Part shown: piece after piece, positions 25,976 through 26,747 of the stretch
Layout of the letters: each line of letters opens with the position of its first letter
Position numbering within the stretch: the stretch's first letter is position 1
DNA from: a virus
Lineage: Duplodnaviria; Heunggongvirae; Uroviricota; Caudoviricetes
DNA: 40,582 bases
IMG/VR virus record: IMGVR_UViG_2778261692_000003
Location: 1 to 40,582 of that record
Reading direction: 5' to 3' (one strand)
Position numbers and translations under genes: made by a program
Notes under the pieces: generated by a model
What the model was told of the DNA's origin: nothing
Database searches by the model: none
The model's input: only the letters and a program-made list of their open reading frames with translations

Positions 25976-26148
25976 TTCCTCGCACGATGTCTTAGCCACC
26001 GTATATCCCACAGGTGAGCCGTGTAGTTGAATGTTTTTACGTCAGATTCTTTTGGGATTGGCTTGCGTTTATTTCTGGAGCGTTTCGTTGGAAGGTATTT
26101 GCAGTTTTCGCAGATGATGTCGGTGATACTTCGTCGCTGTCGCCTCAT
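25972..26148 (-). CDS. ninE: NinE
   Basis: 58 aa from ATG 26148: [52 protein letters not shown], matches recalled lambda NinE; ATGA overlap with HNH gene stop. Confidence 0.65.
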
Positions 26149-26747
26149 GCCGCCCTGTCTCCCCATCGCGCTTTCATTGTTTCATTTGCAAATCGCCAGA
26201 ATCTTCCTTTGTGATATGAGCTTTCGCCATTACAGCAACGACTAATTGACGAACTATCAAATCCTTCTCTGACAGCATCCATAGCTGCTTCATAATAAAC
26301 CTCCTCCCCAGTTTTCATGTCAGTAGAAATAACAGCTTTACTGGCAGGATGATCACCACTAAATTTACCTAGCGATATAGGTATTCTTCCATTTTGTTTA
26401 TATCCGTGCTTTGAGTTTTCAGAATGTGATACCCATTCAAGGTTTTCAGCCCTATTGTCATCTCTTTGCCCATTTTTGTGATTAACTACCAAGCCATCAC
26501 AGAACCCTGTACAGAATGCTTTCGCAACTATCCTGTGGGCGCTGTATTTCTTACCGTATACCTTTATTTGAAGATATCCTGTCGACTTGCACTTGAATGG
26601 TTTTACGCTAGTGCCATTAATTATTTTCTTATATGGCCTCTGTCTGGTTGATGTTACTGTAATTTCCCTCGTAATAGACCTGAAATTTCCTTTATTGCTA
26701 ACCTGATAAAATGGAATTCCTTCGATATCTACCCAAACCTCAATCAT
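26145..26747 (-). CDS. HNH homing endonuclease (NUMOD4-like N-terminus plus HNH_3 core)
   Basis: [20 protein letters not shown] (NUMOD4-like); [22 protein letters not shown]...[25 protein letters not shown] (HNH motif); AT-rich relative to neighbours. Confidence 0.7.

Follow-up and report, generated by a model that had tools for sequence, protein, structure and literature searches.

In the 40,582-nucleotide (nt) stretch of viral DNA analysed here (IMG/VR virus record IMGVR_UViG_2778261692_000003, positions 1 to 40,582; hereafter the window), which represents the genome or prophage of a P22-like podophage whose early region is lambdoid and mosaic, an open reading frame (ORF) for an HNH endonuclease is located in the nin region. 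Results of our analysis indicate that this ORF is probably a homing endonuclease gene, free-standing and of the I-HmuI type, which resides in ninB (orf), the gene of a recombination mediator, and targets it. The endonuclease gene shares a foreign block of 855 base pairs (bp) with the 3' part of ninB, and the last codons of the endonuclease ORF are a remnant of the ninB gene that was displaced. The features on which this reading is based are as follows.
26176..27030, minus strand: foreign block of 855 bp, comprising divergent ninB codons 43-138 and HNH codons 1 to ~190, which substitutes for 284 bp of lambda-type ninB.
26740..27156, minus strand: chimeric ninB (orf), 138 amino acids (aa), true start ATG at 27156, Pfam NinB E value 8.8e-40.
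26145..26747, minus strand: HNH endonuclease ORF, ATG start, 200 aa, with NUMOD4, HNH_3, an I-HmuI-like C-terminal DNA-binding region, and a NinB-derived tail (Pfam, PHROGs, phmmer, AlphaFold (AF2)/Foldseek).
26145..26175, minus strand: relic of the lambda-type ninB 3' end, forming the in-frame HNH C-terminus (K A R W G D R A A stop) and including the ATGA overlap with ninE.

The breakpoints of the block were placed by comparison with three relatives that lack the HNH gene, namely lambda, mEpX2, and a prophage of Escherichia coli MB50, homology to which ends at 27031 and picks up again at 26175. The left joint follows ninB codon 42 (...CAACCGCAGC, then ATTCGG) and falls at a patch conserved across NinB lineages (..IQERNRS), while the right joint precedes the HNH ORF end by 31 nt. 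An earlier prediction made from the sequence of the window (hereafter the original prediction) had placed the gene as an insertion between ninB and ninE; its coordinates for the ORF were right, and we can specify the strand as minus, but both joints are intragenic and not at gene borders, one following ninB codon 42 and the other preceding the lambda-type ninB stop by 31 nt. The segment 26145-26175 shows 93.5% identity to the final 31 nt of lambda ninB and is read in the same frame, and the end of the HNH protein, ...KARWGDRAA, is the C-terminus of lambda NinB. Both overlaps that had been predicted for the ORF are present: the ninB stop and the ORF start share 8 nt (ATGATTGA, 26740-26747), and the ORF stop overlaps the ninE start as ATGA (26145-26148). 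The translational coupling to ninE is therefore preserved, as had been supposed, but only because the original junction between the ninB stop and the start of the next gene, the counterpart of the lambda ninB/ninC junction, stayed in place. The G+C content is 38.8% in the block and 39.8% in the HNH ORF vs. 46.9% in the window and 46.8% in ninE, which bears out the predicted AT-richness of the ORF relative to its neighbours; however, the AT-rich tract does not end at the ORF start and extends into ninB to position 27030 (39.6% in the 3' part of ninB vs. 46.8% in its 5' part).

The window NinB is itself a chimera, in which codons 1-42 are lambda-type and codons 43-138 come from a divergent NinB lineage without the lambda C-terminal helix. 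When ninB alone was used as the query, full-length matches were confined to phages in which the HNH gene is present as well. In phages without it, among them lambda, P22, HK97, and many others, only the first 126 nt of ninB with the upstream flank (27031-27174) matched, at 94-99% identity, and blastn detected no similarity between the 3' part of the carrier ninB and the lambda-type ninB. The divergent part is a member of a broad NinB lineage, the core of which is ...EFWKGLFVSGWQIATNQ.PEIVPGLEGEFINIREST. In lambda Orf, the C-terminal helix that includes W137 has been linked to DNA binding (PMC4118853). The window NinB, at 138 aa, is devoid of this helix, W137 included; short C-termini are also natural in many NinB members of the divergent lineage. 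We considered the possibility that the HNH gene had been inserted into the divergent ninB and had truncated its long tail, and rejected it for lack of general support, as several relatives of this lineage without the HNH gene are naturally short (L108/109). One relative without an endonuclease keeps an intact long tail (...KKWSARWGA in P0153/L158).

The uninterrupted allele expected from these joints exists. The predicted empty site, assembled from the 3' sequence of a lambda-type ninB with the tail and the window ninE, is contiguous in E. coli genomes at 98.2% identity, and it is covered to at least 80% in 1093 genomes, in some of which a dam gene intervenes. The prophage of E. coli MB50 is colinear with the window on both sides of the block (25934-26175, 97.9% identity; 27031-27233, 95.6%), with 284 bp in place of 855 bp between them. 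The comparison with insert-less prophages that had been proposed to define a homing site thus yields a colinear allele without the HNH gene, but what is replaced in carriers is a 284-bp segment of lambda-type ninB, and not a simple insertion site.

The distribution of the block is sporadic. Of 5426 complete E. coli genomes, 77 contain it; the lambda-type 5' part of ninB is found in 1568 and the lambda-type 3' end joined to ninE without the HNH gene in at least 1093, so the gene is far from being a universal companion of ninB and ninE, a role that would have been fatal to the original prediction. The O157:H7 strains EC4115 and SS17 carry the block. The divergent 3' part of ninB occurs in 77 E. 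coli genomes, always at 99% identity or more, which is the same number as for the whole block; no copy of it without the HNH gene was detected among the 5426 genomes (77 vs. 77) or in the phage collection, and phage records contain full-length ninB and the HNH gene in equal numbers. The empty site is, therefore, the lambda-type ninB, and not the same allele without an insert. In the phage collection, the HNH gene is ~98% identical in 63 records, including phages 86, P27, and APC_JM3.2, and 51 of 69 matching phage records are Shiga toxin (Stx) 2a-converting phages. The copy of Salmonella phage SEN22 is more distant (73% identity). The exact HNH protein is encoded on 918 contigs, where it is labelled as 'HNH endonuclease' or 'NUMOD4 domain-containing protein'. 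Certain 33-nt exact matches to the tail/ninE junction in O157:H7 genomes were rejected as candidates for the empty site, since they represent a deletion joint in a defective prophage: in E. coli O157:H7 FRIK2533 (L159, 2001-2705), a truncated bet is directly joined to the final 33 nt of ninB and to ninE. This bet/ninB-tail joint is common to several O157:H7 genomes.

The block and its flanks have separate histories. Over 19 loci, the core (ninB nt 127-417 and the HNH gene) is 98.2-100% identical and is combined with at least six different sets of flanks, the identity of which to the window is as follows.
ninB nt 1-60: from unrelated to 98%.
ninB nt 61-126: 45-97% (89-97% in 18 of the 19 loci).
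31-nt tail: 87-100%.
Outer flanks: often unrelated.
The gene that follows the HNH gene varies as well: it is ninE in the window, ninC in APC_JM3.2, a dam methylase gene in Stx phages, and ninD in SEN22. The original prediction that the HNH gene occupies the place of ninC and ninD does not agree with this variety, in which it precedes ninC, dam, or ninD, nor with the frequent occurrence of ninB next to ninE in genomes without the HNH gene. Synonymous divergence (dS) separates the block from the beginning of ninB in both directions.
Window vs. Stx phage P27: block dS 0.02-0.06; ninB codons 1-42 dS 0.94.
Window vs. SEN22: block dS 2.6; ninB codons 1-42 dS 0.25.
Flank polymorphisms vary to within 13 nt of the left joint, next to the near-identical core, a pattern which, as read from the aligned loci, fits break repair limited by heterology. 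The HNH ORF itself is under purifying selection, judging by its ratio of nonsynonymous (dN) to synonymous divergence, which is 0.14 in the comparison with the P27 copy; in the comparison with the SEN22 copy, dN is 0.15 and dS is saturated. Decayed copies of the block also occur, and include an HNH gene split by ~1.3 kb, ninB genes in which a frameshift leads to ...KKYPK*, and HNH proteins that are truncated or frameshifted (L041/L092; L035, L040, L102, L104; P0004, P0006, P0008). Such a pattern of decay is typical of selfish genes.

The protein encoded by the ORF has the domain make-up of a homing endonuclease.
26559..26741, minus strand: NUMOD4 domain, residues 3-63, Pfam PF07463, 51.2 bits (cut-off 23.4).
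26412..26543, minus strand: HNH_3 catalytic domain, residues 69-112, Pfam PF13392, 45.0 bits (cut-off 24.8).
26205..26315, minus strand: C-terminal I-HmuI NUMOD-like (helix-turn-helix-type) DNA-binding region, residues 145-181, Pfam PF22083, 19.3 bits, under the cut-off of 27.
The NUMOD4-like N-terminus and the HNH_3 motif that had been recognized by eye both score above the Pfam cut-offs in the profile search. The ORF also matches PHROG 59, 'HNH endonuclease' (E value 6e-39), and a phmmer search recovers I-HmuI (Protein Data Bank entry 1U3E) with an E value of 4.7e-14 over residues 55-186, the last of which is the end of the alignment; identity to I-HmuI is ~29%. In the alignment to 1U3E, the catalytic residues, whose absence would have spoken against the original prediction, are in place: H90, N102, and N111 correspond to H75, N87, and N96 of I-HmuI, and N89, H90, N102, and N111 are invariant among 16 homologues. 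An AF2 model built with these 16 homologues has a mean predicted local distance difference test (pLDDT) score of 81.7 and contains helices at residues 155-160 and 165-172. Foldseek finds I-HmuI as the sole significant structure for this model (E value 1.3e-11, probability 1.00, template modeling scores 0.47/0.54, 189 columns), with the next match at an E value of 0.4. Residues 190-200 have a pLDDT below 50 and are predicted to be disordered. The ORF is intact and separate, with its own GGAGG and ATG, and together with this architecture it substantiates the predicted free-standing, homing-type HNH gene of the nin region, the nuclease activity of which we infer from its relatives.

We propose that the mobile unit would be the promoter-less 855-bp block, composed of the divergent 3' two-thirds of ninB, presumably cleavage-resistant, followed by the endonuclease gene. 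The block would be transcribed with the early-right operon in lytic growth, and the enzyme would nick or cut the lambda-type ninB of a co-resident lambdoid genome, in or beside the 284 bp that are replaced in carriers, after which repair of the break would copy from the carrier genome. The left end of the conversion would be set where the likeness between the lambda-type and the divergent ninB stops, i.e., after codon 42 (...CAACCGCAGC), while the right end would fall within the final 31 nt of ninB, with the recipient tail and the ATGA junction remaining, and the recipient ninB tail would thereby become the C-terminus and the stop of the endonuclease ORF. The divergent ninB segment would both maintain ninB function and protect the carrier, and the spread of the block would be break-driven. 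I-HmuI and I-BasI nick one strand of a long degenerate site (PMC3017599), and by analogy the window enzyme probably does the same.

Relatives of the HNH gene, at 78% down to 44% identity, are located directly 3' of NinB-family ORFs in many lineages, where they overlap the NinB ORF by at most ~25 nt or start within ~15 nt of its stop. The metagenomic homologue L009 is preceded by a fully divergent NinB, and its HNH ORF ends in ..ASRLEIEWATRWGKS, a longer lambda-type NinB-like tail. At the same ninB 3' site, L105 (2501-3461) and L157 (2501-3458) contain an unrelated endonuclease gene of the HNH_3-AP2 type. The NinBs of these two loci are ~75% identical to the divergent part of the window NinB and have the same left junction (TGGAG....TATGAT), and their HNH_3-AP2 proteins also end in NinB-like tails, QAIEWASRFGDKQRAAA in L105 and QAIDWARRFGETKRAA in L157. 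The W..R[WF]G motif is rare (12 matches in 1.67 million six-frame residues), and its matches that are at most 7 residues from a stop belong to NinB, to these endonuclease ORFs, and to one unrelated ORF. Another HNH_3-AP2 gene lies inside the 5' end of ninB in L020 (1434-2508) and in L007 (E. coli TUM1880, 2079-3096). It is preceded by ~31 N-terminal residues of lambda/Stx-type NinB, which in L020 are fused to it in frame, and is followed by a new N-terminal segment of ninB, MKCVKYHLTNES... This endonuclease gene with its private ninB 5' piece was found in 8 of the 5426 E. coli genomes, with an identity of at least 99%. The ninB of L020 carries the block of the window in addition and is, in effect, a triple chimera between two endonuclease genes.

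We tentatively suggest, with less confidence than in the homing function of the window gene, that homing endonuclease genes recurrently use ninB/orf of lambdoid phages as a landing pad, at either end of the gene, where at least two unrelated families (NUMOD4-HNH and HNH-AP2) insert within the ORF, each with a private ninB replacement segment and with an in-frame relic of the displaced end on the endonuclease. If this were true, endonuclease-driven repair would be a direct cause of intragenic mosaic joints in lambdoid phages and of Orf diversification. In general, the nin region gives the impression of a hot spot for endonuclease genes. Other HNH_3-AP2 genes are present in the interval between the helicase gene and ninB in ETEC1720 (L008, 4061-4672) and in that between ninF and ninG in TUM1880 (L007, 650-1216).

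Several observations weigh against the homing of the block into ninB. The residue that precedes the catalytic His, an acidic metal ligand in I-HmuI (Asp74), is Asn89 in the window protein; as it does not vary within the clade, it is a trait of the clade and not a lesion, and the substitution is probably tolerated. The NinB tails on HNH ORFs differ in length (~15, 9, and ~3 residues), which may be due either to separate insertion events or to deletions that arose in frame afterwards. The block was never split in the collections searched, and a functional pair of NinB and nuclease would give the same result. One sub-lineage of the HNH genes adjoins DUF1367 and not NinB. Finally, lambdoid nin regions are mosaic anyway, and ordinary homologous or Red-type exchange could yield the same discontinuities of identity. 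As for the genes next to DUF1367, homologues with 63-68% identity follow a DUF1367 gene that stands in the usual place of ninB in L042, L043, and L047 (~2044-3085), and the copy of an Enterobacter phage (L005, 2985-4026; 77% nucleotide identity over part of the gene) also follows DUF1367. Some of the DUF1367-linked HNH genes still lead into ninE via an ATGA overlap. DUF1367 may be an analogue of NinB or a further target.

Among the alternatives to self-copying, the one that comes closest to it, and partly overlaps with it, assumes that the main gain from the nuclease comes from damage done to lambdoid genomes with a lambda-type ninB, co-infecting or resident, or from their marker exclusion. 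Targets for such a weapon are abundant (the 1568 E. coli genomes with lambda-type ninB), heterologous phage DNA is nicked by enzymes of the I-HmuI type (PMC3017599), and interference between co-infecting phages by an intron endonuclease has been described (PMC11620839). We nevertheless regard this explanation as unlikely, because a tight block with flanks of differing ancestry records the transfer of the block, and not the exclusion of larger regions. As for the mosaic exchange of the nin/replication module, which the original prediction had considered possible, exchange is documented for the block of 855 bp and not for the nin or replication module.

Somewhat less probable still is the explanation that the block is a passenger of lambdoid mosaicism, i.e., a module swapped by homologous or Red-type recombination, in which the HNH protein takes no part and may be inactive. 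The nin region is highly mosaic and its neighbours are variable (PMC4118853), and the conserved patch at the left joint (..IQERNRS) makes recurrent homologous exchange there plausible; the Asn in place of the Asp metal ligand of I-HmuI and the decayed copies could also be read as signs of an idle enzyme. An uninvolved protein is, however, hard to reconcile with the purifying selection on the ORF and with the invariance of the remaining catalytic residues. Nor would passive exchange be expected to place both joints within one gene, to bring two unrelated endonuclease families, both with NinB-tail relics, to the same spot and another endonuclease gene into the ninB 5' end, or to leave flanks that are polymorphic to within 13 nt of a near-identical core. 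The remaining explanation, that the nuclease is a domesticated partner with which Orf/NinB forms a two-gene recombination module retained for the benefit of the phage (e.g., with nicking that starts exchange), seems to us quite improbable: it would account for the strict linkage and translational coupling of the HNH gene to one NinB lineage, for the purifying selection, and for the NinB-HNH fusion proteins of Gram-positive phages, interpreted as collaboration (PMC2034487; PMC4118853), but the architecture is that of a site-specific homing enzyme (NUMOD4, I-HmuI-like) and not the zinc-finger HNH of the DUF968 fusions, only ~5% of E. coli genomes with lambda-type ninB have the HNH gene, unrelated HNH-AP2 genes substitute for it at the same site beside closely similar NinBs, it is found beside DUF1367 too, and it has a low G+C content as well as frameshifted and insertion-disrupted copies.

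Homing of the I-HmuI type into ninB, the reading that we prefer, has parallels in several known systems. I-HmuI and I-BasI, both intron-encoded nicking HNH enzymes, come from Bacillus phages SPO1 and Bastille, and I-HmuI is the only significant solved relative of the window protein in both sequence and fold. The two share the order of parts (an N-terminal beta-rich DNA-binding region, the HNH core, and a C-terminal helix-turn-helix-like module) as well as the general-base His and the metal-binding Asn (H90 and N111, corresponding to H75 and N96). In contrast to the genes of I-HmuI and I-BasI, which are located in group I introns of a DNA polymerase gene, the window gene is free-standing and its host gene is ninB. 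The window protein differs from I-HmuI also in the bulk of its sequence (~29% identity), in the Asn for Asp74, and in the 9-residue tail borrowed from NinB, and nicking is assumed in its case. The free-standing homing genes of T-even phages (SegF/gene 56, MobE/nrdB; 'intronless homing') resemble the window gene in their presence/absence polymorphism and, like the window block, move with adjacent diverged sequence of the target gene. Free-standing endonuclease genes of T4 (seg, mob) are usually cassettes that lack a promoter and overlap the upstream gene over a short stretch (PMC2988022), which is also the organization of the window gene, a promoter-less ORF on the operon of its host gene with a short upstream overlap. 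The differences are that the window gene belongs to temperate lambdoid/P22-like phages, lies inside its target ORF, has an in-frame relic of the latter on the endonuclease, and is known here from its sequence.

In the homing endonuclease gene (HEG) islands of the HNH-AP2 type, nuclease genes mark the boundaries of exchange, and one locus accepts different endonuclease genes (PMC10055350). The HNH_3-AP2 genes at the ninB 3' site (L105, L157) and at the ninB 5' end (L007, L020) are reminiscent of this; the window gene is of the NUMOD4/I-HmuI type and not AP2, and the cited study was made without lambdoid phages or ninB. Gene 31 of the P22-like phage epsilon34 encodes the eaE N-terminus fused in frame to HNH (PMC2629481) and is thus likewise an endonuclease ORF bearing a piece of the gene in which it landed. 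It lies in the ea region, however, and its fusion is N-terminal, which makes it similar to the second endonuclease of L020 and not to the window gene. The association of NinB/Orf with HNH is shared with the DUF968 NinB-HNH fusions of Gram-positive phages, which are single polypeptides with a zinc-finger HNH, whereas the window encodes two ORFs, the second with a homing-type HNH_3. In line with this, the HNH ORF did not match DUF968 in the Pfam search, and its HNH_3 accompanies NUMOD4. The window gene also differs in location from terminase-adjacent HNH genes of the HK97 gp74 type: its place is in the nin region, with the replication genes on one side and ninE-ninH with the phosphatase gene on the other, while the terminase falls in that part of the window whose matches are the structural and packaging genes of P22-like phages.

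Most work on homing endonuclease genes has dealt with T-even and other virulent phages, and the origin of mosaic joints in temperate lambdoid phages is an old question. The kind of element found here is already known, and the HNH gene is routinely annotated by homology; the searchable literature yielded no account of the block within ninB, of the NinB-tail relic, or of the two landing pads. The locus is a clean and widespread example from relatives of lambda, including Stx-converting phages of O157:H7 and O121. With both joints defined and matched carrier and non-carrier alleles to hand, it offers a lambda-tractable case for the study of intragenic mosaic joints, in which, according to the homing reading, the enzyme would cut the lambda-type ninB and spare the carrier allele. 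For annotation purposes, the final nine residues of this 'HNH endonuclease' are NinB sequence, and the neighbouring NinB is a chimera.

The order of genes on the minus strand of the window is replication protein, DnaB-type helicase, ninB, HNH ORF, ninE, ninX, ninF, ninG, ninH, and phosphatase. The following features surround the ORF.
25972..26148, minus strand: ninE, the downstream neighbour with ATGA-coupled translation, Pfam NinE E value 1e-43, the match beginning at the second Met of a longer ORF.
26752..26756, minus strand: Shine-Dalgarno sequence GGAGG of the HNH ORF, read from the sequence, 4 nt before the ATG and within the final ninB codons (..E W R N Y D stop).
27181..27204, minus strand: G+C-rich, terminator-like hairpin with a T run after it, immediately upstream of ninB, in the conserved left flank and outside the element.
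The ninE frame contains an additional in-frame ATG 18 nt upstream (26148-26166, minus strand), which would give a 22-nt overlap with the HNH ORF; the second Met (26148) is the start of ninE in both the Pfam NinE match and the RefSeq annotation, the latter for a 99.5% identical prophage of E. coli ETEC1720. The junction TGGAG..TATGA at the start of the HNH ORF recurs in SEN22, L046, L105, and L157. An Rfam scan of 25500-27500 on both strands returned no RNA families or intron matches, and thus there is no sign of an intron around the HNH ORF. Promoter-like sites in the region did not exceed the chance level, and the sole terminator-like hairpin found by a terminator scan is the conserved one upstream of ninB. 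The flank in which it lies (27031-27234) shows 97% identity to lambda, and we take the hairpin to be the terminator region that is lost in the lambda nin deletions.

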